In this document: positions 909 to 18,558 of the stretch, piece after piece
Layout: each line of letters starts with the position of its first letter
Numbering within the stretch: the first letter of the stretch is position 1
DNA from: Actinomycetota bacterium
GTDB taxonomy: Bacteria > Actinomycetota > UBA4738 > HRBIN12
Direction: 5' to 3'
Assembly: GCA_040902755.1 (NCBI GenBank)
Contig: JBBDWS010000053.1
Coordinates: 1-34,539 of the forward strand
DNA length: 34,539 bases
Program-made: the position numbers and the translations under genes
Notes under the pieces: model-generated
Databases searched by the model: none
The model's input: the letters and a program-made list of their open reading frames with translations, nothing else
What the model was told of the DNA's origin: nothing

Positions 909-1076
909 ATGCCGAGTAAGAAGCAAACCGAACCCAAGCAGGAAACCGAGAAGGGCTACAAGATTCCCGTCCCCAAGAAGGACGAGTTCTTCGACGCGCT
1001 GGGGAAGGCTGCCCGAACGCCTAAGCGCCCGGAATCCGAGACAGGAAAGCGTCGAACATCCCGCGACGACCGGTGA
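909..1076 (+). CDS. Candidate small Lys/Glu-rich protein, 55 aa (MPSKKQTEPKQETEKGYKIPVPKKDEFFDALGKAARTPKRPESETGKRRTSRDDR)
   Basis: It is below the ORF-track size cutoff. ATG 909 has GGAG (900..903) 5 nt upstream, third positions are G/C-rich, and the stop is TGA at 1074..1076. It is divergent from the 261-aa gene. Its last 56 nt overlap the transposase 3' end on the opposite strand, which lowers confidence. Confidence 0.3.
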   Translation: MPSKKQTEPKQETEKGYKIPVPKKDEFFDALGKAARTPKRPESETGKRRTSRDDR

Positions 1077-1962
1077 CATCCCGGTTGTTGTAACGGAACG
1101 CGTACTCGTCCAAGTACGACTGCAAGTGCTTGGTGGATACGTTGTGGTAGACGCCACCAAGCCCGCGCTTCACGGTCGCCCAAAAACCCTCAATCGTGTT
1201 GGTGTGGACGGTCCCGCTGACATAGACGCCCTGGGCGTGGTTGACGCGTCCGTGGGTGTATCCGAGCGATTCCAGATCGCGGTAGACGTAAGACTCGTCC
1301 GAGAACACGGTGGACGCGGGAAGGATGCGCTCCTTGGCGTGAGGCATCAGATGGTGCTTCTTCGCGGACTCCGCGACCTGCACCACAACCTTCCCGGTCC
1401 CGCTGGGGCCGCGCTGCACCATCCCGATAACCGGGGTCTTGGTGACAGGGCCAGTCCCCTTGTGGGGGCGCTTCCCTTCGTGCTTCCACTTGTCCTTCCC
1501 GCCGAAGTAGGACTCGTCCACCTCGACGGTTCCGCCCACCATCAAGTCGTCTTGGGACAGCAGGGACCGGATGCGGTTGGCCATGCGCCAGGCGGTCTTG
1601 TAGGTGACGCCCAACTCCCGTTCCATCTGCTTCGCGGAGATACCGCATCGAGTGCTGGCCATGAGGTACATCGCGTAGAACCACAGCTTCAGCGAAGTGG
1701 CCGAATCCTCGAAGATCGTCCCGACCATCGGGTGTACGCGGTGGCCGCAGAACTGGCAGGAATAGGACGGGCGCGACTTCTCCCGATGGTGCTTGGTGAT
1801 CTTGCCGCATGTCGGGCAGAACGCACCATCGGGGTAGCGGAAGCGGTAGAGCCAGTCGAGGCAGGACGCATCGTCGGGGAACTCCCGCTCGAACTCCATG
1901 AGGGAGTAGCGGGATTCGGAAGCCCTCGACCGCTTCGGATTGTTCCGATCCGCCTTCGACAT
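1021..1962 (-). CDS. IS1595 family (ISXO2-like) DDE transposase with N-terminal zinc ribbon
   Basis: 313 aa. Zn-ribbon CPTCG...CQFCGH; motifs VEVDESYFGGK, FSDESYVY, HTNTIEGFWATVKRGLGGVYHNVSTKHLQSYLDEYAFRYNNR are typical of the Zn_Tnp_IS1595 and DDE_Tnp_IS1595 domains. Confidence 0.9.
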   Translation of the reverse strand: MSKADRNNPKRSRASESRYSLMEFEREFPDDASCLDWLYRFRYPDGAFCPTCGKITKHHREKSRPSYSCQFCGHRVHPMVGTIFEDSATSLKLWFYAMYLMASTRCGISAKQMERELGVTYKTAWRMANRIRSLLSQDDLMVGGTVEVDESYFGGKDKWKHEGKRPHKGTGPVTKTPVIGMVQRGPSGTGKVVVQVAESAKKHHLMPHAKERILPASTVFSDESYVYRDLESLGYTHGRVNHAQGVYVSGTVHTNTIEGFWATVKRGLGGVYHNVSTKHLQSYLDEYAFRYNNRDVTGRRGMFDAFLSRIPGA

Positions 1963-2784: not shown

Positions 2785-4227
2785 TCAGCCCAAACGGTCT
2801 GCCGGCTCGGCCGGCACGTCGAGCACGAACGTCACGTCCTGTCCCACGCGGACCGACGTCGTGCCGCCTTGCGCCATCGCGACGCCGTTCGCCACGAACA
2901 AGCCGATCTTGCTGCCCGAGCCGGTCCCCGGCGCTCGCGCCAGGAACAGTCGTTCGGCGTCCTCCTGGCTCAGCGTGGTGCCCCGCCGCGAGACCTCCAG
3001 GACGAGCCGTCCGTCGCGAACGGCTCCCTCGACGCGGAGCGGGCCCTCGTTCGTCCACCACACCAGCGCTTCGATGAACGCCTCCAGGACCAGACGAAGT
3101 CGTTCGGGGTCCACGAACGCCTGGACATCCCCTCCTTCCCAGAGGATCTGCGGATGGTCCGGATCGCGCCCCAGTGACTCCGCAACCTGCCCGACGAGCC
3201 TGCCGACCTCGATCCGCTCGGGGAACAGGTCGAGCGAGCCGGCGGCTAGCCGAGCCGCGTCAACGAGCTGTCGCAGGATCGAGTTCAACCGGTCGGTGTC
3301 GTAGACGATCCCGGCCAGCATGAGTGCGCGTTGCTCCTCGGGCATCTGATCCCAGCGGTTGACGAGCGCGTGCCCGAATCCCTTCATCGCGGTAAGCGGC
3401 GAGCGGATGTCGTGGGCCGCCGCCGCGATCACTGTCTCGAGGACGGCACGGCGTCCCTCGCGCTGCTGGCGCGTCCACTCGAACAGGCAGACGGAGGCCG
3501 CCGCCGCGAGGTTGAGCGACTCGGCGCGGCCGACGATCGGAACGCGGACCGTCGCATCGGCGAGCCTGGACACCTCTCGCGGGAGTCCCCACGCCTCGTT
3601 CCCGAACACGAAGACCGCCGGGTCGGCAAGGTCCAGCTCGAACAGGTCCGCGTCCCCCGAAGCGTCCATGGCGAAGATGCGCCGGCCCCCGTCGCGCAGC
3701 TGTGCGATCGCATCCGGGGTTTCGACGTCCCGCACGATCGGAAGGTGGAACAGCGAGCCGGCGGACGCGCGGACCGCCTTCGGGTTGTACACGTCGACGG
3801 AATCGGAGCTGAAGACGACGCCGTCGGCACCCGCGGCGTCGGCCGAGCGAAGGACCGTTCCGGCATTGCCCGGGTCGCGGACCGAGCTCAACAGGGCCAC
3901 GCATCTCGAGGAGGACACGACGGATCCGAGGCCGACGTCCACGAACGGGGAGACTCCGACCAGCCCCTGTGGCGTCACGGTCGATGTCAGCTTGCCCATC
4001 ACCTCGTCGCTCACGTGGACGAGCTCCGCTCCGGCCGAACGTGCGGCATCGACGAGCGGGTGTCCGGGATCGGTGTGGTAGAGGCTGGTCAGGCCATCGG
4101 GGTGGGTGAGGGCTTCGCCGACGGCCTGCGCGCCCTCGACGAGGAACCGGCGCTCGCGTTCCCGGAGCGCTCGCTTCTTCAGGCGCAGGGCGGAAGCGAC
4201 CTTCTCGTTGCGTGTCGACGTGATCAC
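2785..4227 (-). CDS. TrmH/SpoU-family RNA 2'-O-methyltransferase fused to a C-terminal histidine-kinase-like DHp/CA module
   Basis: Track ORF 2785..4302 trimmed to GTG 4227, which has GGAGG 5 nt upstream. N-terminal SpoU motifs: DPGNAGTVLRSA, FVFGNEAWGLP, VPIVGRAESLNLAAAASVCLFEW. C-terminal H-box AAAAHDIRSPLTAMKGF and a GTGSGSKIGL G2-like box. It sits where tsnR/TrmH lies after rplT in actinobacteria. Confidence 0.85.
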   Translation of the reverse strand: MITSTRNEKVASALRLKKRALRERERRFLVEGAQAVGEALTHPDGLTSLYHTDPGHPLVDAARSAGAELVHVSDEVMGKLTSTVTPQGLVGVSPFVDVGLGSVVSSSRCVALLSSVRDPGNAGTVLRSADAAGADGVVFSSDSVDVYNPKAVRASAGSLFHLPIVRDVETPDAIAQLRDGGRRIFAMDASGDADLFELDLADPAVFVFGNEAWGLPREVSRLADATVRVPIVGRAESLNLAAAASVCLFEWTRQQREGRRAVLETVIAAAAHDIRSPLTAMKGFGHALVNRWDQMPEEQRALMLAGIVYDTDRLNSILRQLVDAARLAAGSLDLFPERIEVGRLVGQVAESLGRDPDHPQILWEGGDVQAFVDPERLRLVLEAFIEALVWWTNEGPLRVEGAVRDGRLVLEVSRRGTTLSQEDAERLFLARAPGTGSGSKIGLFVANGVAMAQGGTTSVRVGQDVTFVLDVPAEPADRLG

Positions 4228-4295: not shown

Positions 4296-4377
4296 GCCTC
4301 AAGCAGCGAAGCGGTAGGCCTTCGTGGGAAGCCTCAAGCAGCGAAGCGGTAGGCCTTCGTGGGAAGCCTCAAGCAGC
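4296..4377 (-). repeat. 35-bp tandem direct repeat (2 perfect units plus a 12-nt partial unit that is the rplT 3' end including its stop codon)
   Basis: gcctcaagcagcgaagcggtaggccttcgtgggaa occurs at 4296..4330 and identically at 4331..4365. gcctcaagcagc recurs at 4366..4377, covering the rplT codons GCT GCT TGA. Confidence 0.95.
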
Positions 4378-4728
4378 CAGGGCGTCCTTCGCCGTCTGGA
4401 CGAGCCGCTCGAACGCGGCGGGATCGTGCACGGCCATGTCGGCGAGGATCTTGCGGTCGAGCTCGACGCCCGCCTTCTGCAGCCCATGCATCAGCTGCGA
4501 GTACGAGATCCCGTTCTGACGGGCGCCGGCTCCGATGCGCGCGATCCACAGCCGGCGGAACTGGCCCTTGCGGTCACGACGGTCCCGGTACGCGTACTGG
4601 CCGGAGTGAAGCAACTGCTCCTTGGCCACGCGATACCGCCGGGAGCGCGCGGCGTAATACCCCTTCGCCTTGCGCAGGACCTCCCGACGCTTCTTCTTCG
4701 CGTGGACCGAACGTTTGACGCGCGCCAT
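4369..4728 (-). CDS. rplT: 50S ribosomal protein L20
   Basis: 119 aa, [38 protein letters not shown]...; full-length match to the L20 family. Confidence 0.97.
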
Positions 4729-4734
4729 CTCCGC

Positions 4735-4923
4735 CTACTTCCCGAGCAGCCGACGGATGTTGGTGCGCTCGGCCCTGACCTCGGCCATGCCCTCGACCCG
4801 CCGCCGGCGGCTGCCCCTCTTCTTCGTCAGAAAGTGGTTCCCGGTCGCCTTGCGGTGAAGGACCTTCCCCGTTCGGGTGATCCGGAACCGCTTCGCCGTC
4901 GCCCGGTGCGTCTTCTGCTTCAT
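4735..4923 (-). CDS. rpmI: 50S ribosomal protein L35
   Basis: Track ORF trimmed to ATG 4923 (MKQKTHRATAKRFRITRTGKVLHRKATGNHFLTKK...), with a purine-rich GGAAGGAAGAGAG upstream. Confidence 0.93.
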   Translation of the reverse strand: MKQKTHRATAKRFRITRTGKVLHRKATGNHFLTKKRGSRRRRVEGMAEVRAERTNIRRLLGK

Positions 4924-4990
4924 CGTTGAAGCTCTCTTCCTTCCATCCTTTGCACGCGAGCCCTCGCCTTGCGAGGCCTCGCGTCGCATG

Positions 4991-5100
4991 GGCCTACCGC
5001 TTCGCACTTGAGCCGGTTCCTTCTCGGCGCGAGAGACCTAGCCTGGACCTACGCTTCGCTGCGAGCCGGTTCCAGAGACTACCGCGTCGCGGGCTGAGGC
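4991..5100 (+). repeat. Three dispersed copies of a CCTAC(C)GC(T/G)TCGC-box unit in the infC-rpmI spacer and the infC 3' end, inverted relative to the rplT tandem units
   Basis: ggcctaccgcttcgcacttgagccggttcc (4991..5020), ggacctacgcttcgctgcgagccggttcc (5045..5073), and the weaker gactaccgcgtcgcgggctgagg (5077..5099). ggcctaccgcttcgc (4991..5005) is the exact reverse complement of 4306..4320 and 4341..4355. Confidence 0.7.
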
Positions 5101-5774
5101 CCCTCCACGCTTCCCTGGGCCTGCGACTGCTCCCGGGCGCCGGAGGCTTCCTGCTCCGCCACGGGGGCTTCGGTTTCCTCCGCCGGCTTGGGGGCGGTGG
5201 CGTCCTCCACCGGTTCGGGGCTCGGCGCCGCCGCCGGCGGTTCGAGGCCCCGCTTCGACGCCTCGGTTCGTTGCTCCATCGCCTTCTTCGTCGGCCCGAT
5301 CACCATCACCATGTTGCGCCCGTCCTGCTTGGGTTGCGCCTCCACGACGGCCGTATCGCCGAGATCCTCAACCAGCCGGTCCAGGATCTTGCGCCCGAGA
5401 TCCGTGTGGGCCATCTCGCGCCCGCGGAACATGATGGTCACCTTGACCCGCGCTCCCGCCGAGAGGAACCGGACGACGTGGCCCTTCTTCGTGTCGTAGT
5501 CGTGCCGGTCGATCTTCGGGCGGAACTTGATCTCTTTGACCTCGACCCGCACCTGCTTCTTGCGGGCCTCCTTCTGGCGGATGTCGCGCTCGTACTTGAA
5601 CTTCCCGTAGTCCATGATCCTGGCCACGGGCGGGTTCGCCTGCGGCGCCACCTCCACGAGGTCGAGGTCCAGCTCTTGTGCTTGCCGGAGCGCCTCCTGC
5701 GTGGAGACGATCCCGATCTGCGACCCGTCGGCACCCACCAGCCGTACCTGCGGCGAGCGGATCCGGTCGTTTAT
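5079..5774 (-). CDS. infC: Translation initiation factor IF-3 (probable non-canonical ATA/ATC start; acidic or Pro/Ala-rich C-terminal tail)
   Basis: The track ORF starts at GTG 5738. The conserved IF-3 N-terminus (RINDRIRSPQVRLVGADGSQIGIV) continues in frame upstream to a TGA at 5799..5801. The only start-like codons there are ATA (5774) and ATC (5762). The 5' coordinate is uncertain. Confidence 0.85.
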   Translation of the reverse strand: MNDRIRSPQVRLVGADGSQIGIVSTQEALRQAQELDLDLVEVAPQANPPVARIMDYGKFKYERDIRQKEARKKQVRVEVKEIKFRPKIDRHDYDTKKGHVVRFLSAGARVKVTIMFRGREMAHTDLGRKILDRLVEDLGDTAVVEAQPKQDGRNMVMVIGPTKKAMEQRTEASKRGLEPPAAAPSPEPVEDATAPKPAEETEAPVAEQEASGAREQSQAQGSVEGPQPATR

Positions 5775-10265: not shown

Positions 10266-11201
10266 TCACTCGATCTTGCGGCGGTCCACGGCGTAGGACG
10301 AGCTCGATTCGCGCTTGGCGAACTGCTTCATCTCCGTGGCGACGGCGACCGCCTCGCCGTAGTGCTCGAACATACGGACGTTCGTGGTCGCGATCCCGAC
10401 CGAGACGCCCGCGAGCGGCAGCTTCTGCATGACGCCCTTGCGGTCCTCCACCTCGACGTAGCCCCGCTGGAGGTCTTCCTGTTCGTAGAACTCGTGGATG
10501 CCGCCGTCGAAACGCTCGACGATCCGCTTCGCAACGTCCTCGGCCACCTCCGGCGGAACGACGGCCACGAAGTCGTCGCCGCCCACGTGCCCCACGAACC
10601 CCTCGGAGCCGGCGAACTCGACGACGGCGTCCTGGATGATCCTCGCCGTCGCCTGGATCAGCCGGTCGCCGCGCACGAACCCCTTCTGGTCGTTGTACGC
10701 CTTGAAGTTGTCGAGGTCGCTGTACAGCACGGCGAACGGGCGCTTGTCACGCACTCCCCGCTCGATCTCCTCCTGGATCCGGATGTTGCCCGGGAGTCCG
10801 GTGAGCGGCGAGAGGTTGCGCATCTCCTTGGCCCGGCGAAGCGTTCCCTTCACGCGCGCGAGGAGCTCGATCGGGTCGAACGGCTTGATGATGTAGTCGT
10901 CCGCGCCCGCCGTGAGGCCGAGCACCTTGTCGGTCGAGAGCGCCTTGGCGGTGAGCATGATGATCGAGGCGTTCGCCGTCTGCGGATTGCGGCGCAGGCG
11001 CTGCGCGACCTCGAACCCGTCGATCCTGGGCATCATCACGTCGAGCAGGACGAGGTCGGGCCGGAGCGCCGCCGCGCGTTCGAGCGCCTCCTCGCCGTCG
11101 GTCGCCACCGAGACCTCGTACCCCGCGCTCCGCAGGTTCACCTCGACGAACCGGGCGATGTCGGCGTCGTCGTCGACGACCAGGATCGTCTCGGGCATCA
11201 C
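10266..11201 (-). CDS. Response regulator with receiver and GGDEF-type output domain (signature GGDDF)
   Basis: 311 aa. Receiver motifs ILVVDDD...LVLLDVMMP...MLTAK. Output domain motifs LTGLPGNIR, DLDNFKAYNDQKGFVRGDRLI, HVGGDDFVAV. Confidence 0.9.
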   Translation of the reverse strand: MMPETILVVDDDADIARFVEVNLRSAGYEVSVATDGEEALERAAALRPDLVLLDVMMPRIDGFEVAQRLRRNPQTANASIIMLTAKALSTDKVLGLTAGADDYIIKPFDPIELLARVKGTLRRAKEMRNLSPLTGLPGNIRIQEEIERGVRDKRPFAVLYSDLDNFKAYNDQKGFVRGDRLIQATARIIQDAVVEFAGSEGFVGHVGGDDFVAVVPPEVAEDVAKRIVERFDGGIHEFYEQEDLQRGYVEVEDRKGVMQKLPLAGVSVGIATTNVRMFEHYGEAVAVATEMKQFAKRESSSSYAVDRRKIE

Positions 11202-11336: not shown

Positions 11337-12731
11337 CTAGCCGCGGGTCGACTCCCGACGGCGGAAGCCGGCCACGAACATCGCGTCGCATCCGTGCCGG
11401 TGCGGCCACAGGCGGATCCGAGGGGCCGGGCCGTCGGGCCCGGGAAGGTCGGCCGGCTCGAGCTCGGCCCCGTGACGCACGATCGCGTCGCAGGCCGCAT
11501 CGGTCTCGGCCCGAGGAAACGTGCAGACGCTGTAGACAAGGAGCCCGCCCGGACGCAGGAGCCCCGCGACGCCGGCGACGATCGCGACCTGAAGCCGCGC
11601 GAGTGCCGAGAGCTCGTCCCTCTGCACACGCCACAGGAGCTCGGGACGCCGTCGCGCGGCCCCGATGCCGGAGCAGGGCGCGTCCACGAGGATCCGGTCG
11701 AACGCACCACCAACGGCCGGACGCCGAGCATCCTGCACCACGACGTGCCCTCGGATCTTCAGCCGGTCCAGGGTGGACCGGACGAGGCCCGCGCGCGGGG
11801 TCGACGGATCGGTCGCGACGAGCGTCCCCTCCGGCCCGAGGAGACACGCGATGTGCGCCGCCTTCCCGCCGGGACCGGCGCATACGTCGATGACCCGCTC
11901 GCCCGGCTGCGGATCAAGCGCCCGCACCACGAAGGACGAGGCCTGGTCCTGCACGGCGAACCAGCCCTCCGCGAAGCCGGGGAACGAGGTCGGCGCCCCC
12001 GCCCGAACGATCAGGGACTCCTCGTGCAGCGCACCGCGCTCCGCGTCGATGCCGGCCTCGCGGAGCACGCGCTCGACCTCGTCGACGCTCGTCCGGCACG
12101 TGTTGGTCCGAAGCGTCGTCGCGCCGTGCTCGCCGAGAGCGTGTGCCGCCGCCTCGGCCTGGTCGCCGAGGAACAGCCGGAGCTCGTGGATCGCCCACGC
12201 GGCGAGTCCCGTCCGGACCGCGACGTCCTCGTCGCCGTCGCCTTCCGGCCAGCGCACACCCTCCCCGACGAGACGGCGAAGCACCGCGTTGACGAAACCC
12301 CGGTGTCGCGGCCCCGCGAGCCCGACCGTCTCCGACACGGCGGCGTGGTCGGGGATCCGCATGAACAGGATCTGATAGGCGCCGAGCCGGAGCAGCGCGC
12401 GAGCCTCCTTCGGCGCGGTGTCGAGGGACCGCTCGAGCAGCGGAGCGAGTGCGTAGTCGAGGGGGATCTTCTTGCGGATCGTCCCGTACGCAAGCTCCGA
12501 CGCGAGCGCCGCGTCCCGCTCGGACAGACCCGACCGCGCGATCGTCCTCGCGAGCGCGAGGTTCGAGTACGCGCCCTCGTCGATAACCCGCCGGATCACG
12601 TCGAGCGCCACCGAGCGGGCCGTGGTCGCCGGTTCGGGCTTCGCGGTGGCTCGAGCACCGGATGGACTCGAGGCCGCTCGCCGACCTCCGGGCGGGCTCA
12701 CCCGAGCTCGCCGGCCGTGGGGCGGGCTCAC
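11337..12731 (-). CDS. rsmB: 16S rRNA (cytosine967-C5)-methyltransferase RsmB/Sun
   Basis: NusB-like N-terminal domain (ALDVIRRVIDEGAYSNLAL) plus DVCAGPGGK, DAPCSGIGA and VYSVCT motifs. GTG start in a GTGA overlap with the fmt stop; an alternative duplicated GTG lies at 12701. Confidence 0.9.
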   Translation of the reverse strand: MSPPHGRRARVSPPGGRRAASSPSGARATAKPEPATTARSVALDVIRRVIDEGAYSNLALARTIARSGLSERDAALASELAYGTIRKKIPLDYALAPLLERSLDTAPKEARALLRLGAYQILFMRIPDHAAVSETVGLAGPRHRGFVNAVLRRLVGEGVRWPEGDGDEDVAVRTGLAAWAIHELRLFLGDQAEAAAHALGEHGATTLRTNTCRTSVDEVERVLREAGIDAERGALHEESLIVRAGAPTSFPGFAEGWFAVQDQASSFVVRALDPQPGERVIDVCAGPGGKAAHIACLLGPEGTLVATDPSTPRAGLVRSTLDRLKIRGHVVVQDARRPAVGGAFDRILVDAPCSGIGAARRRPELLWRVQRDELSALARLQVAIVAGVAGLLRPGGLLVYSVCTFPRAETDAACDAIVRHGAELEPADLPGPDGPAPRIRLWPHRHGCDAMFVAGFRRRESTRG

Positions 12732-13663
12732 CCGAGCCGCTCGTCGACCTCGGGACGGAACCCGTTCACGAAGTCGGCACCCGTCATCCGCTTTCGGCCC
12801 GCGGGAGAAAGCTCCAACGGCCGGAACCCCCCGTCAGCCGTCGCCACGACGATCCCGTCCTTGCTCACGTCGACGATCCGTCCCGGCTCGCCCTCGGCGT
12901 CGACGGCCTCGGCCCGGAAGACCTTCACGCTTTCATCGCGGAACGTCGTCGTCGCGGCCGGCTCGGGCGAGAGCGCGCGGACGAGGTTCACCAGCAGGCC
13001 GGCCGGGTTCGACCAGTCGAGTACACGCTCGTGCAGGGCGAACTTCGGTGCGAAGGTCGCGAGCGAATGGTCCTGGGGTCTCGGCGCGACGGGCCCCGCC
13101 CCGAGCATGTCGATGCTCTCGACGAGCACGTCCGCGCCGATGGCGGCCAAACGCGCACCGAGCGTCCCGGCATCGTCGGCCGGCCCGATGGGCTCCTCGC
13201 GCTGCAGGATCACCGGTCCGGTGTCCAGTCCGCGATCCATCACGATCGTCGAGACCCCCGTGATGTCATGGCCGAGCAGGAGCGCCGTCTGGACCGGGGT
13301 GGCGCCGCGAAGCCGGGGCAACAGCGAGAAGTGCAGGTTCACCGGGGCGATCGTCGGGACGTGCAGGACGGTCGCGGGCAGGATCTCGCCGTACGCCACC
13401 ACCGCGATCACGTCTGGCATCGCTGCAGCGAGATCCTTGAAGCCGGCACCGGTCTTGACGGTCTCGACCTCGGCCAGCGGGAGATCGAGCAGCAGCGCGG
13501 CCTCGGCGACGGACGTCGGCCTCAACTCGTTGCCGCGCCCGGCCGGCTTCGGCGCGGCGGTGATCACGATCGCGATCTCGTGCGGCGATCCGGCGAGCGC
13601 TCGCAGGGACGGCACCGACCAGGCGTCGTTCCCGAGGAACGCGACGCGTAGGGATCTGCTCAC
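12728..13663 (-). CDS. fmt: Methionyl-tRNA formyltransferase
   Basis: 311 aa, ...VAFLGN...VNLHFSLLPRLRGATPVQTALL... Confidence 0.95.
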   Translation of the reverse strand: MSRSLRVAFLGNDAWSVPSLRALAGSPHEIAIVITAAPKPAGRGNELRPTSVAEAALLLDLPLAEVETVKTGAGFKDLAAAMPDVIAVVAYGEILPATVLHVPTIAPVNLHFSLLPRLRGATPVQTALLLGHDITGVSTIVMDRGLDTGPVILQREEPIGPADDAGTLGARLAAIGADVLVESIDMLGAGPVAPRPQDHSLATFAPKFALHERVLDWSNPAGLLVNLVRALSPEPAATTTFRDESVKVFRAEAVDAEGEPGRIVDVSKDGIVVATADGGFRPLELSPAGRKRMTGADFVNGFRPEVDERLG

Positions 13664-13682
13664 GCCGCGAGGATACGCGCGT

Positions 13683-14189
13683 CTAGTGCTCGGGCGGTGC
13701 GTTCATCTCGAGCTCGCGGAGCTGTCGCATGACGTCGCGCCGGCCCTCATCCGTGAGGCGGTCGATGTACAGCATCCCGTTCAGATGGTCCGTCTCGTGC
13801 TGGAAGATGCGCGCGAGGAGCCCCTCGGCTTCCAGGTCGATCGGCCGCCCCTGCAGGTCCCGTCCGCGAAGGCGGACGCGTGAGGCCCGCACGGTCGGAT
13901 GGTAGGGACCCGGGATGGACAGGCATCCCTCTTCGAGGATGTCCTCACCGACGAGGTCGCTCACGATCGGGTTGGCGACGAATCCCGCACCCCCCTCCCG
14001 GTCGTCGTAGACGAAACACGCGGTCGACAGGCCGACCTGGTTCGCCGCCAGACCGACGCCGGGGGCTTCGTACATCGTCTCGAGCATGTCCTCCGCGAAA
14101 CGCCGCAGCGCGGCATCGAACGTCTCGACGGGACGGGTCTGCTCCCGAAGCACGGGATCGCCCAACGTTCGGATCGGCATGAGCGTCAC
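13683..14189 (-). CDS. def: Peptide deformylase
   Basis: Motifs GVGLAANQVG, EGCLSIPG and QHETDHLNG. Start taken as GTG 14189 (GGAG 6 nt upstream, overlapping the priA stop); ATG 14180 is the alternative. Confidence 0.93.
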   Translation of the reverse strand: MTLMPIRTLGDPVLREQTRPVETFDAALRRFAEDMLETMYEAPGVGLAANQVGLSTACFVYDDREGGAGFVANPIVSDLVGEDILEEGCLSIPGPYHPTVRASRVRLRGRDLQGRPIDLEAEGLLARIFQHETDHLNGMLYIDRLTDEGRRDVMRQLRELEMNAPPEH

Positions 14190-14199
14190 ACGTCGCTCC

Positions 14200-16119
14200 T
14201 CACAGGTGCGGCTCGGCCTCAACCCGCGTCACGACGCCCCGCTCCGCAAGTCGGCGGATCGCCGCGCCGAACACGGCGACGTCGCCGGCATCCAAGGCGA
14301 CCAAGCATACCGTCTGCTCTTCCAGCGACGAGACGAGAAGCGTGCGATGCGGCAGCGCCGTCATCTCGTCCTCCAACGATCCGGTCCCGACCACGCGGAA
14401 CACCGGGGCGCCGACCGGGAAGCCCGCGTCGGCCAGCCGGGTCCGTTCCGTTCGCGCGAACCGATCGGGTTTGCCGGCGACGAGCGCTTGGACGGCGTGG
14501 TCGTTCGGCCGATTCGTCTGAAGGACGACGCGTCCAGACGGACCCGCCCATGCCGCGACCTCGGCCCACGCCGAGAGCGTTCGCTCTCGCGCCGCAACCC
14601 CGGCTCGGCGAAGCGAAGCGTCGGCGTTCAAGATCCCGACGAGGTCGAGTCCGAGCGGGCCGAAGTCCTTCACCGCGTCGATCCCGCCGACCACCACTTC
14701 CGTGTCGCCCGGCGGACGAGGCCGGTCGGAAGGTCCGAGCCGCGAGACGGGAACGGTGGCCACTCCCCGAGCCCACTGCTCGACGCGCTCGGCTCCGCCG
14801 CGCGCCACGCCGAAGTCCTCCGCTCCGCACGCGGCGCACCGCCCCCGCGCTTCGCACACGGTGCACCGGATCGACCCCTCCTCGGACCGCAGCATCCCGC
14901 CGCACGACGCGCACGCGGCGGGTTCGCCGCAGGCCCGGCAGACACGGGCCACGCCGTAGCCGCGGATCGGCTCGTACAGGAACGCCCTGCGCGCCTCGCG
15001 GAGCGTGGCGATCAGTCTCGGCGCTCTCCCCTCGGGACCAGGCTTCACGGCCTCGACCCGCGGCCACCGCCGGTCGGAGGTCTCGACGCCGACGTGGGGC
15101 GTCTCGAGGCCCTCGAGCGAAGGCATGACCGACGCGAGGACGGTGACCGCGCCCTCCCGAGTCGCCCGCGCGACCGCGACGTCCCGAACGTGGAAGTAGG
15201 GAGAGCGTTCCTCTCGATGCAGCGCGTGATGCTCGCGCCCGACGAAAAGCAGTCCGAGGTTCGGGACGGGCGCGAAAACCGCCGGCCGTGTCCCGACGAC
15301 GACGCGGTACCGACCGTCCCCGATGTCCAACCACATCCGGTACCGGGACCGCTTGTCACCCCCGAAGAAGCAAGCCACGTCCTCGCCGAACGCCTCCACC
15401 ACCGCCTTCACCGTCGCCGGCACCGGATCCACCTCCGGAACCACCACCACCGCCCCCCGCCCTGAAGCGAGCGCCGCAGCAACGCACTCGACCGCGAGCG
15501 CCGCCTCCTCCCCCGGCCCACTCCGAACCACAAACGTGCCAGCCCCCTCGCTCAGCGCGCCGAGTAGCCGAGCGCCGTTGTTGTACTTGTCCGCGAGAAG
15601 CGGCTGCGCGGCGGATGGAACGGCGGCGTCGTCGCGCAGGGCTGTGGGGCGAGGAGCGAAACCCGACGAACCCATCTCAACCGAGCCCGTCAGGGCGAAG
15701 CGACGAGGGGACCCACCGCCCGGAGCGACGACGCCGGCGTCTTCTTCGGACGCGACGCGCGGCGGATACGACCGCCCGATAACCGAGGCGAGCGGCGCGA
15801 CGTATCGCTCGCCGATCCAGCGATAGAGATCCAGCATCCGCTCGTCGAAGAAGCGGACCCGCGAGACGTGCTTGTGGACCTTCAGCATGCGCGCCGGAAG
15901 GTCGCCGGTCGGACCGAGAACCCAGCCTCGAACGAGCTTGCCGTGGAAGCGCACCTGGACCAACGAGCCGACGCCCGCCCCGAGCTCCTCGGCAAGCTCG
16001 TACGTGAACGGGCGATCGAGCGACAGGAGCGGGCGGTCCACGCAGACCGCGACGGGTCCGGAAAGGACGGCGGCTCCGCGCTCGAGCGTGGGACTAGTCG
16101 AAGGCGCGGCGGAGCTCAT
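14200..16119 (-). CDS. priA: Primosomal protein N' (PriA) homologue with degenerate Walker A/B motifs and an inserted repeat element
   Basis: 639 aa. Cys-rich Zn region [15 protein letters not shown]...[14 protein letters not shown] and C-terminal PriA similarity. GSGKT is replaced by GPGEE, and DEEH by GREH. The start overlaps metK by 26 nt, so the start is moderately uncertain. Confidence 0.85.
15624..15736 (-). repeat. ~113-nt imperfect-palindrome repeat element inside priA (in frame)
   Basis: The core 15639..15718 is 70/80 identical, without gaps, to 24441..24520 in carB. It is flanked by a perfect 12-bp inverted repeat, cggcgtcgtcgc (15624..15635) and gcgacgacgccg (15725..15736). Confidence 0.8.
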
Positions 16120-17281
16120 CCGCGCGGTCGGTCGACTCCCACGGGAACTCCTTGCGTCCGAAGTGCCCGTACGCGGCCGTGTCCTTGTAGATTGGCTTGC
16201 GCAGGTCGAGGTCGCGGATGATCGCCGCGGGGCGGAAGTCGAACGCTTCCCGAACCACGTCGCTCAGCCGCGCGGGGTCGACGTGCTCGGTCCCGAACGT
16301 ATCGATCGCCAGCGACACGGGGTGTGCCGTGCCGATCGCGTACGCGACCTGGAGCTGGAGCCGGTCGGCCAGACCCGCGGCGACGAGGTTCTTCGCGACG
16401 TACCGGGTCATGTACGCGCCCGAGCGATCCACCTTCGTCGGGTCCTTCCCCGAGAAGCAGCCGCCGCCGTGCGGGGCCATTCCTCCGTAGCTGTCGACGA
16501 TGATCTTCCGACCGGTGAGGCCGGTGTCGGCCTTGGGGCCGCCGATCTCGAAGCGCCCGGTTGGGTTGACGAGGATCCGGACGTCGTCTGCGTCGAGCTC
16601 GACCTCTCGAAGGACTGGGTCGATCACTTCGGTCCTGACGTCGGGCGCGAGCAGGGTCTCGACGTCGACCTCTTCGCGGTGCTGTGCGCTGATCAGCACC
16701 GTGTCCACGCGCTTGGGGACACCGTCCTGGTACTCGATCGTGACCTGGCTCTTGCCGTCCGGCCGCAGATACGGGATCACCCCGGCCTTGCGGACATCGG
16801 CAAGCCGCTTGGCCAGGCGATGCGCCATCGCGATGGGGATGGGCATCAGCTCGTCGGTCTCGCGACAGGCAAAGCCGAACATCATGCCCTGGTCGCCGGC
16901 GCCGAGCGTGTCGAGTTGATCCGTCGAGTGACCCTCCCGGTGCTCGAGCGAGTCCTCCACTCCCCGGGCGATGTCCGGCGACTGGTCCTGGATCGAGGTG
17001 ATGACGCCGCACGTGTCGCCGTCGATGCCGAAGTTGGCGTCCGTGTACCCGATCTCGGTGACCGTGTCGCGGACCACTTGGGGGATCTCCACGTAACCGG
17101 AGGTCGAGATCTCGCCCGCGACCATGACCAGGCCGGTCGTCACGAGCGTCTCGCAGGCAACCCGGCAGTTGGCGTCGACCGCCAAGATCGCATCCAGCAC
17201 CGCGTCGGAGATCTGGTCGGCGAGCTTGTCGGGGTGCCCCTCGGTGACGGATTCCGAGGAGAACAGGTAACCGCCGCTCAT
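16094..17281 (-). CDS. metK: S-adenosylmethionine synthase
   Basis: Track ORF 16094..18163 trimmed to ATG 17281 ([31 protein letters not shown]...). Motifs [10 protein letters not shown] and GGGCFSGKD. Confidence 0.96.
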
Positions 17282-17346
17282 GTCGTCGGAGCATAGCAGG
17301 GGGCTCCGACGACCCTGACGAACCCATGATGGCCGGCGTTCGGGAC

Positions 17347-18558
17347 TCAGCGGGCAAGGAGCTTTGCGAGGCGATCGCAGATGGCGCTCGCGAGCTCGGG
17401 CTTGGTCCAGTCGCGCAACGCCTCGTCCTCGCCCGTCCGCGACAGGATCGCCGCGCGATCCGTTTCCGAGCCGAAGCCGGTCCCCTCGCGGCCGACCTCG
17501 TTGGCGACGAGGAGATCGACGCCCTTGCGTTCGAGCTTGCGGCGTCCCTCGGCCTCGATGTCTTCGGTCTCGGCTGCGAAGCCGACGAGGACGCACTCGC
17601 CGCCACGGGCACCGAGCTCGGCGAGGATGTCCGGCGTCGGCACCAACCGAAGCTCTGGGGCGCCGCCCTCCTTTTTGATCTTCGAGCCCGCGGCCGCCTC
17701 GGGACGGAAATCCGCGACGGCGGCGGCCATGACGACGGCGTCGGCACCCTCGGCCGCGCGAAACACCGCGTCGCGCATCTCCTCGGCCGTCGTCACGGAG
17801 ACGACGGCGGGCCCCTCGGGAGGTCCGACGGTGCCCGGTCCGACGACGAGCGTCACATCGGCGCCGCGGGCGAACGCTTCGGCCGCCACCGCGAACCCCA
17901 TCTTGCCCGTCGACCGGTTCCCGATGAAGCGGACCGGATCGATCGGCTCCCAGGTCGGGCCTGCGGTGACGACGACGCGGCGACCCGCCAGATCCCGGCC
18001 ATGCGCGAGGAGCTCCTCGACGACCGCGAGGATCTCCTCGGGCTCGCTCATCCTGCCGATCCCCTCGTCGCCGGCGGCGAGTGAGCCGCGCGTCGGTCCG
18101 ACGATCACAGCGCCGCGTTCGACGAGGGTCGCGACGTTGGACTGCGTCGCGTCGTGCTCCCACATCCCCGTGTGCATGGCCGGCGCCAGGACGAAGGGAC
18201 CGCGCGCCTCGAGCAGCGTGGAGGTCAGCAGGTCGTCGGCGATGCCGAACGCGAGCTTGGCGATGACGTTCGCCGTGGCCGGAGCGACGACGACGACGTC
18301 GGCCTCGTGCGCGAGCCGGATGTGCAACACGCCTGGCTCATCGTCGAAGAGGTCCGTGTACACGCGGTGATCGGAGAGGGCGGCGAAGGTAGCGGGACCG
18401 ACGAATCGCTCGGCCGAGCGGGTCATGACCACGCGGACCTGCGCGCCGCGGAGTCGGAGCAGCCGGGTCAGGATGCACGCCTTGTACGCCGCGATTCCCC
18501 CAGTGACACCGAGCAGGACCCGGCGGCCCACAAGGACGGAGGGTTCGCTCGTGCCCAC
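17347..18558 (-). CDS. coaBC: Bifunctional phosphopantothenoylcysteine decarboxylase / phosphopantothenate-cysteine ligase
   Basis: 403 aa. Flavoprotein domain ([20 protein letters not shown]) plus the CoaB domain (ITAGPT-like [25 protein letters not shown]). Confidence 0.93.

Follow-up and report, generated by a model that had tools for sequence, protein, structure and literature searches.

A SpoU/TrmH RNA methyltransferase fused to a degenerate OhkA-type histidine kinase module in a class of uncultured Actinomycetota

The orphan histidine kinase OhkA and its cognate response regulator OrrA control development and antibiotic production in Streptomyces, and the programme that they govern includes WblA. 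The gene for OhkA in Streptomyces coelicolor is SCO1596 (PMC9739842), and SCO1595 and SCO1594 are pheS and pheT (PMC10771440). The signal that OhkA senses was not identified in the OhkA/OrrA literature that we searched. Here, we describe a gene at positions 2785-4227, on the minus strand, of a 34,539-nucleotide stretch of DNA (called the window throughout: positions 1 to 34,539 of contig JBBDWS010000053.1, assembly GCA_040902755.1, Actinomycetota bacterium) in which the counterpart of OhkA is joined in frame to an RNA methyltransferase and has lost the residues of its ATP-binding boxes.

Both halves of the product have described relatives. The closest relatives of the first half are 2'-O-ribose methyltransferases such as RlmR, a dimeric enzyme described as two domains with catalytic residues R128, S236, and N238 (PMC12123411). 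For a histidine kinase module that does not bind ATP, the described parallels are phosphotransferases derived from kinases with a dead catalytic and ATP-binding (CA) domain, namely ChpT (PMC3433190) and PhyT and Spo0B (PMC5898713). No description of a SpoU/TrmH-histidine kinase fusion was found in the literature that we searched, in line with the preliminary description of this DNA, which had been made from the sequence alone and had pointed to no known characterization of the domain combination.

Two neighboring genes in one reading frame

The window gene is a single open reading frame, translated as 480 amino acids, that begins with a GTG codon at 4227, six bases after a GGAGG, and ends with a stop codon at 2785-2787. 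The preliminary description had the coordinates right and did not recognize that the gene lies on the minus strand. The gene, its parts, and the genes upstream of it are as follows.

2785-4227, minus strand: whole fused gene, 480 amino acids (full-length homologues have about 480).
3928-4227, minus strand: L30e-like RNA-binding domain (MRM3-like/SpoU_sub_bind), residues 1-100, from Pfam and the Foldseek match to RlmR (9h1k).
3457-3927, minus strand: SPOUT (SpoU/TrmH) catalytic domain, residues 101-257, with motifs I-III, from Pfam and invariant columns.
3232-3456, minus strand: dimerization and histidine phosphotransfer (DHp)/HisKA helical hairpin, residues 258-332, with H-box AAHDIRSPLTAMKGF, from Pfam HisKA and modeled helices.
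3412-3414, minus strand: codon of His272, the phospho-acceptor position, aligned with H260 of HK853.
2785-3231, minus strand: pseudo-CA domain, residues 333-480, and stop codon; modeled Bergerat fold kept, ATP boxes replaced.
2986-2988, minus strand: codon of Arg414, in place of the adenine-binding Asp of the G1 box, from alignments.
2908-2910, minus strand: codon of Lys440, in place of the second Gly of the G2 box, from alignments.
4369-5738, minus strand: upstream operon genes infC (5079-5738), rpmI (4735-5007), and rplT (4369-4728), from Pfam; their order is common to all related loci.

Pfam confirms every domain of the SpoU_methylase, HisKA, and HATPase_c architecture that the preliminary description had proposed. 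The matches are an MRM3-like/SpoU_sub_bind domain at residues 7-91 (PF22435, 51.7 bits; PF08032, 29.6 bits), SpoU_methylase at residues 111-249 (PF00588, 8e-37, 126.9 bits against a cut-off of 29.7), HisKA at residues 264-330 (PF00512, 1.9e-9, 37.8 bits), and a borderline HATPase_c at residues 373-472 (27.5 bits against a cut-off of 26.4). As had also been claimed, Pfam finds no sensor or input domain (transmembrane, PAS, GAF, and the like) in the fused protein. Neither a stop nor a linker lies at the junction between SPOUT and DHp. In the AlphaFold2 model (mean predicted local distance difference test score of 88.7, with lid residues 431-440 least confident) the last SPOUT helix (residues 239-257) is followed, after a two-residue break, by DHp helix 1 (260-290) and helix 2 (297-328). 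The direct run of the frame into a canonical H-box and DHp region, as first read, is thus borne out by the HisKA match, the unbroken frame, and the modeled helices.

The origin of the kinase half became clear when the kinase module alone was searched in 301 genomes across the phylum. Best matches were taken from 20 genomes of other families, and in 20 of 20 of these Actinomycetota loci the best genome-wide match lay between rplT (or the SpoU gene) and pheS/pheT. It is a separate kinase gene adjoining a SpoU methyltransferase gene in 15 of the loci, while in the other 5 the methyltransferase is absent and the kinase directly follows rplT. The Streptomyces order is a SpoU methyltransferase (308 amino acids), a cytoplasmic PAS-HisKA-HATPase_c kinase (380 amino acids), and pheS-pheT; because SCO1596 is OhkA and SCO1595 and SCO1594 are pheS and pheT, the kinase in this slot is OhkA, an identity derived from the SCO numbering in the two papers cited above. 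In some lineages the kinase is a stand-alone DHp-CA protein that has no PAS domain and measures about 230 amino acids. Since the kinase half matches the neighboring gene of the slot, the window gene is a fusion of two adjacent genes. By position, its kinase half is orthologous to the orphan kinase OhkA, and the bifunctional protein arose from adjacent genes of an infC-rpmI-rplT-methyltransferase-ohkA-pheST series. No second OhkA-like copy was found in the genome of the window (G000). Neither this origin from the neighboring ohkA gene nor the spread of the fusion through the class had been recognized in the preliminary description.

OhkA and the fused protein share the slot directly upstream of pheS, the link to the SpoU methyltransferase that goes with rplT, and the H-box signature H[ED][IL]RSPLTxxKGF...W, and the best genome-wide match falls on this gene in every sampled family. 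They differ in that OhkA stands alone as a protein of 380 amino acids, has a PAS domain, and binds ATP through a canonical domain, whereas the fused protein has no PAS domain, has a methyltransferase attached, no longer has the N, G1, and G2 residues in its CA domain, and differs or is merely similar at three of five specificity positions.

The fusion is present in 147 of the 151 genomes of the order to which the window belongs, and in 91 of the 91 that are of high quality, with identities as low as 45%; this order of uncultured Actinomycetota is the only one in its class, and the slot throughout is infC-rpmI-rplT-fusion-pheST. A protein search listed 120 homologues, nearly all of full length (462 to 490 amino acids, 67 to 95% identical) with two truncated entries, and all have the same domains as the fused protein; their database names, where they are named, are almost all just "TrmH family RNA methyltransferase." When contigs were taken from one genome per species, 58 loci in metagenome-assembled genomes (MAGs) carried the gene, and the frame was uninterrupted in 56 of them, the other two being one contig end and one frameshifted assembly.

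This class is not the only place where the two genes have been joined. A representative search followed by Pfam found SpoU-HisKA-HATPase_c fusions with canonical ATP boxes (P0184, with a HATPase_c score of 102 bits, and P0258, with 90 bits), and about 17 clusters of such intact-kinase fusions were collected (P0184, P0258, and P0272-P0286). They occupy the same infC-rpmI-rplT-fusion-pheST slot; examples are L134:5001-6527 and L136:5001-6560, the latter of which overlaps pheS by 4 nucleotides. When a maximum-likelihood tree was built from the DHp-CA region, all degenerate fusions came together in a single clade (support, 100/99), and the intact-kinase fusions fell at no fewer than 3 to 4 separate places among the unfused kinases, mostly among those with the source label Acidimicrobiia. 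The intact-kinase fusions therefore resemble the fused protein in domain order and locus but differ in their canonical boxes (90 to 102 bits), their separate origin, and their much greater rarity. That the two neighbors have fused repeatedly argues strongly for a joint function of the methyltransferase and OhkA.

Several features of the surrounding DNA were observed in the window itself. Between the fused gene and pheS, about 45 bp downstream of the fused-gene stop, lies an IS1595-family element (45-2739) with 33-nucleotide terminal inverted repeats (45-77 and 2707-2739) that are 94% complementary. Its transposase (1021-1962, minus strand) has a DDE_Tnp_IS1595 domain and a Zn ribbon, its further open reading frames are without Pfam matches, and its G+C content is 0.59 to 0.62 compared with 0.70 outside. 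The insertion site is empty in a 95%-identical relative (L001), and the window contig ends right past the element. On the other side, the gap between rplT and the fused gene holds a perfect 35-bp tandem repeat of 2.3 copies (4296-4377) that begins at the rplT stop codon, and about 73 nucleotides are missing at this site in the same relative. Farther away, rsmB (16S rRNA methyltransferase), fmt, priA, and metK (S-adenosylmethionine [SAM] synthetase) stand in a row on the minus strand at 11337-18163, upstream of riboflavin genes, in a region dense in translation and SAM-related genes.

An intact methyltransferase and a replaced ATP pocket

By its sequence and modeled fold, the N-terminal half is shown to be an intact dimeric SPOUT 2'-O-ribose methyltransferase of the RlmR/RlmP/MRM3/AviRb type. 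It has the marks of the SpoU/TrmH family (SPOUT class IV), with a SpoU_methylase domain and an L30e-like domain, the motif I Arg, and the motif III Ser and Asn. All of 40 aligned sequences have R117, N121, E211, S237, and N239, of which R117, S237, and N239 correspond to R128, S236, and N238 of RlmR. A profile search of the PDB returned 5kzk, RlmP (7qiu), RlmR (9h1k/4x3l), and AviRb at 1e-47 to 1e-53, and in Foldseek the modeled N-terminal half matches enzymes of the knotted alpha/beta fold, with TM-scores of 0.85 to 0.89 to RlmR, 5KZK, RlmP, and AviRb; the match to RlmR (9h1k) spans 258 columns with a TM-score of 0.89 normalized to the target. The earlier claim of a complete SpoU/TrmH enzyme in the slot between rplT and pheS thus stands on the Pfam domains, the catalytic residues, and the rplT neighborhood.

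RlmR of Thermus thermophilus (Um2552; PDB 9H1K/9MUK/4X3L) shares the L30e-like N-terminal domain, the SpoU knot domain, and the catalytic residues with the methyltransferase half, to which it is 34% identical. RlmP/YsgA of Bacillus subtilis (Gm2553; PDB 7QIU) has the same two-domain build at 30% identity, and MRM3 likewise has the build of a SPOUT 2'-O-methyltransferase of the 23S rRNA A-loop; none of the three has a C-terminal DHp-CA module. The predicted methylation target of the fused protein is most probably 23S rRNA as well. The scores do not single out the A-loop specificity of RlmR, RlmP, and MRM3, with AviRb, 5KZK, and 1IPA matching about equally, and no nucleotide can be assigned from scores that are so similar across RlmR, RlmP, AviRb, 5KZK, and 1IPA. 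The NCBIfam equivalog models for RlmB (TIGR00186, 114.7 against a cut-off of 160.15) and for NshR/TsnR (NF000477, 71.6 against 425) both stayed below their cut-offs.

The kinase half has a different history. The unfused orthologues have canonical N (ENA), G1 (DxGxG), and G2 (GTGLGL) boxes, whereas all members of the fused clade read E[ASG], RxGxx, and G[ST]K. The N-box Asn has become Ala, Ser, or Gly in every member, and in a HMMER alignment N376, N379, and N380 of HK853 correspond to Ala, Glu, and Ala of the fused protein, the stretch that the preliminary description had read as EAL. D411 of HK853 corresponds to R414, which is invariant across the fused clade, so that DxGxG reads RRGTT. The G2 box GTGLGL reads GSKIGL, and K440 is invariant in the 40 sequences and is Lys or Arg in distant members, while G434, G442, and L443 are conserved as a remnant of the box. 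The HATPase_c domain of Streptomyces OhkA scores 107.6 bits, compared with 27.5 for the fused protein. The alignments with HK853 and with the unfused orthologues therefore uphold the earlier claim of a CA-like domain that lacks the N-box Asn and the G1 Asp, and they speak against a misalignment of these residues; of the G2 box, a remnant is present as claimed, but this box is degenerate too, slightly more so than had been described.

The phospho-acceptor site shows the opposite pattern. H272, which aligns with H260 of HK853, and D273, R275, P277, T279, and G283 are all invariant in the 40 sequences. We estimated ratios of nonsynonymous to synonymous substitution rates (dN/dS) by the NG86 method and trusted only the three closest pairs (dS, 0.09 to 0.23), since distant pairs saturate, with dS of about 0.8 to 0.9. 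For these pairs, dN/dS was 0.21 to 0.24 in the N-terminal domain, 0.06 to 0.08 in SPOUT, 0.00 in DHp, and 0.09 to 0.16 in the pseudo-CA domain. The pseudo-CA domain is under purifying selection and is not decaying. In Foldseek the C-terminal half matches HK853 with a TM-score of 0.78. What the fused protein has of an active HisKA kinase is the phospho-acceptor His; the N, G1, and G2 boxes and a sensor domain were not found in it. Judged from these residues, the fused protein is almost certainly unable to autophosphorylate with ATP.

A candidate function and its alternatives

The reading that we favor, with a probability of roughly 0.55, is that the fused protein is an active rRNA 2'-O-methyltransferase dimer wired to a phosphatase or phosphotransfer module, similar to ChpT or PhyT, that would act on OrrA. 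Because His272, the H-box, and the DHp surface are invariant and strongly constrained, we infer that the module takes part in phospho-His chemistry or in docking of a response regulator. On the model of ChpT, Spo0B, and PhyT, the DHp module could dephosphorylate a regulator, exchange phosphate with it reversibly, or sequester it, and the likely target would be the orthologue of OrrA. The only plausible input is the state of the methyltransferase dimer, because the last SPOUT helix runs almost directly into DHp helix 1; the dimer might be free, bound to SAM or S-adenosylhomocysteine (SAH), or engaged on rRNA or pre-50S particles, and its state would be relayed as a conformational change of DHp. 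The preliminary description had likewise preferred a role in phosphatase activity, phosphotransfer, or dimerization to one as an autokinase, and the residues that have been lost and kept favor this choice.

ChpT of Caulobacter, Spo0B of Bacillus, and PhyT of Sphingomonas combine a DHp four-helix dimer, a conserved phospho-His, and a Bergerat domain that does not bind ATP. The likeness is one of mechanism only, and for the fused protein that mechanism is predicted by analogy. There is no detectable sequence relationship: the three proteins were absent among the 98 PDB sequences matched by the profile and among the PDB matches of the kinase module, they descend from other kinases, and none of the three is fused to an enzyme. 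In ChpT, moreover, the pocket is closed by extra helices, whereas the fused protein has point substitutions.

A suitable partner is encoded in the genome. In Streptomyces, the regulator gene three genes beyond lpqB of mtrAB-lpqB matches the published position of orrA (SCO3008); its product has REC and GerE domains, and the gene adjoins hpf. The orthologue in the genome of the window (G000:C67:22402-23058) is 72% identical, with paralogues at 49% or less, has REC and GerE domains, and retains all the receiver residues (DD, D, T, and K). It lies 30 nucleotides downstream of hpf, the gene for the S30AE ribosome hibernation factor, with secA beyond (G000:C67:21868-23064; L145:4869-6065). The hpf-orrA-secA synteny was found in 6 of 11 loci (hpf-orrA in 7 and orrA-secA in 9), among four families outside the class, and the checked loci with hpf next to orrA include Streptomyces. 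Across the phylum sample, 99 of the 301 genomes have an OrrA orthologue. By raw counts that ignore kinship, 75 of the 77 OrrA-positive genomes outside the class have an OhkA-like match at 1e-17 or better, and such a match is present in only about 12 OrrA-negative genomes outside the class. The slot position, the best genome-wide match, and the presence of OrrA, by which a member of the OhkA group would be known, were thus all found.

Another response regulator was considered. The minus strand of the window encodes an orphan REC-GGDEF protein (10266-11201) in the interval from ribD to rsmB. Its identity within the class is 60 to 98%, which exceeds the conservation of the fusion protein, and in all the genomes that were checked its gene is 6 to 7 kb away from that of the fusion. 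It is kept in lineages of family f7 that have no kinase module and is absent from the fusion-bearing genome G015, and genus g12 is also without it. With no clean co-occurrence, REC-GGDEF is not supported as the partner, although it may have a role in a relay.

Several observations weigh against the wiring of the methyltransferase to OrrA through a phosphatase or phosphotransfer module. The kinase module has been cleanly lost in genus g12, which has genomes of 1.3 to 1.6 Mb, and in several genera of family f7. In these loci (L123-L131, from genomes G046, G035, G097, G073, G055, G027, G138, G142, and G066) the SpoU gene is followed by pheS/pheT directly or a few kb downstream. OrrA was lost with the module in g12, but it is kept in 4 of the 6 module-less f7 genomes; therefore, the coupling is not obligatory, and the kinase module is an accessory to the methyltransferase. 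The specificity positions (HK853 268, 271, 275, 294, and 297) read A, G, A, G, and Y compared with S, G, T, T, and A in OhkA, that is, one is identical and two are conservative, so that a kept partnership with OrrA is not demonstrated by them. Position H+4 is Ser, not the Thr or Asn of the textbook HisKA phosphatase motif, and this Ser is shared with the unfused OhkA orthologues. If the kinase is dead, the OrrA of the class would need its phosphate from elsewhere. An affinity for RNA or for some new ligand would account equally well for the basic residues where ATP once bound, and the methylation target, the phosphotransfer, and the binding of OrrA are each a prediction.

The main rival is a structural or RNA-binding reuse, in which DHp-CA is purely a part of the methyltransferase that has no role in signaling, His272 being conserved for structure. 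The module could then be an extra dimerization clamp or, through Arg414 and Lys440, a platform for RNA or ribosome binding. This would fit the loss of all ATP-binding residues and the two invariant basic residues in their place, as well as the loss of the module from lineages in which the methyltransferase remains, the persistence of OrrA in some of those lineages, and the specificity residues that are partly unlike those of OhkA. We regard it as possible but doubtful. The H-box (H272, D273, R275, P277, T279, and G283) is the most conserved stretch, with the dN/dS of 0.00, and its residues are solvent-exposed catalytic ones and do not belong to the core. SPOUT enzymes dimerize unaided, as the RlmR dimer does, and the independent fusions with active kinases show that the link under selection is one between a methyltransferase and a signaling kinase.

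It is far less probable that the fused protein is still an autokinase that binds nucleotide in a noncanonical manner or takes phosphate from a different donor, the methyltransferase being its sensor. In favor of this, the confident model retains the overall Bergerat fold, HATPase_c scores just over the Pfam cut-off, and G434, G442, and L443 of the G2 box are conserved. Yet no member of the clade has kept the Mg-binding Asn, the adenine-binding Asp, or the lid Gly, the lid is the least confident region of the model, and the changes are specific and complete because sister fusions and unfused orthologues keep the canonical boxes.

An artifactual joining of two genes, whether in a recent pseudogene or through a frameshift introduced by sequencing or assembly, is refuted by the comparative data and has a negligible chance of being true. 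The window is a MAG contig, and among the related loci one (L058) carries frameshifts. Yet the 147 genomes, of 151, with an unbroken frame come from many different studies and assemblers and span 45 to 95% identity, all four domains are under purifying selection, the apparent splits in two genomes (G039 and G130) are contig ends, and rplT and pheT are fragmented in L058 too, which marks a poor assembly. In that locus (L058:6001-7432) the fusion gene, rplT, and pheT are each in several frames, most likely through low assembly accuracy and not as a pseudogene.

A possible link between ribosome modification and development

Taken with the OhkA orthology, the fused gene points to a link, so far undescribed, between ribosome modification and a developmental two-component pathway. 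The repeated independent fusion of OhkA with the methyltransferase is a "Rosetta stone" argument for their joint function, and the place of orrA beside hpf is a second tie to the ribosome. A bolder proposal, which we consider unlikely as it stands, is that the rRNA methyltransferase linked to rplT is the physiological input of OhkA-OrrA throughout Actinomycetota, so that the pathway would report ribosome maturation. The report might be made through occupancy of the methyltransferase by unmethylated 23S rRNA or pre-50S particles, or through SAM and SAH, and its output in Streptomyces would be WblA, development, and antibiotic production. In the class studied here, what remains of the pathway would be a phosphatase or phosphotransfer switch that has lost its kinase activity and is hard-wired to the enzyme. 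For Streptomyces this gives the hypothesis that SCO1597 interacts with OhkA and that methyltransferase occupancy or SAM gates the balance between kinase and phosphatase. The fused clade documents a step from an active kinase to a pseudokinase, with intact-kinase fusions on the same tree, and, if the reading that we favor is true, it would be a natural case in which an enzyme is the input domain for a phosphotransfer module that descends from a kinase.

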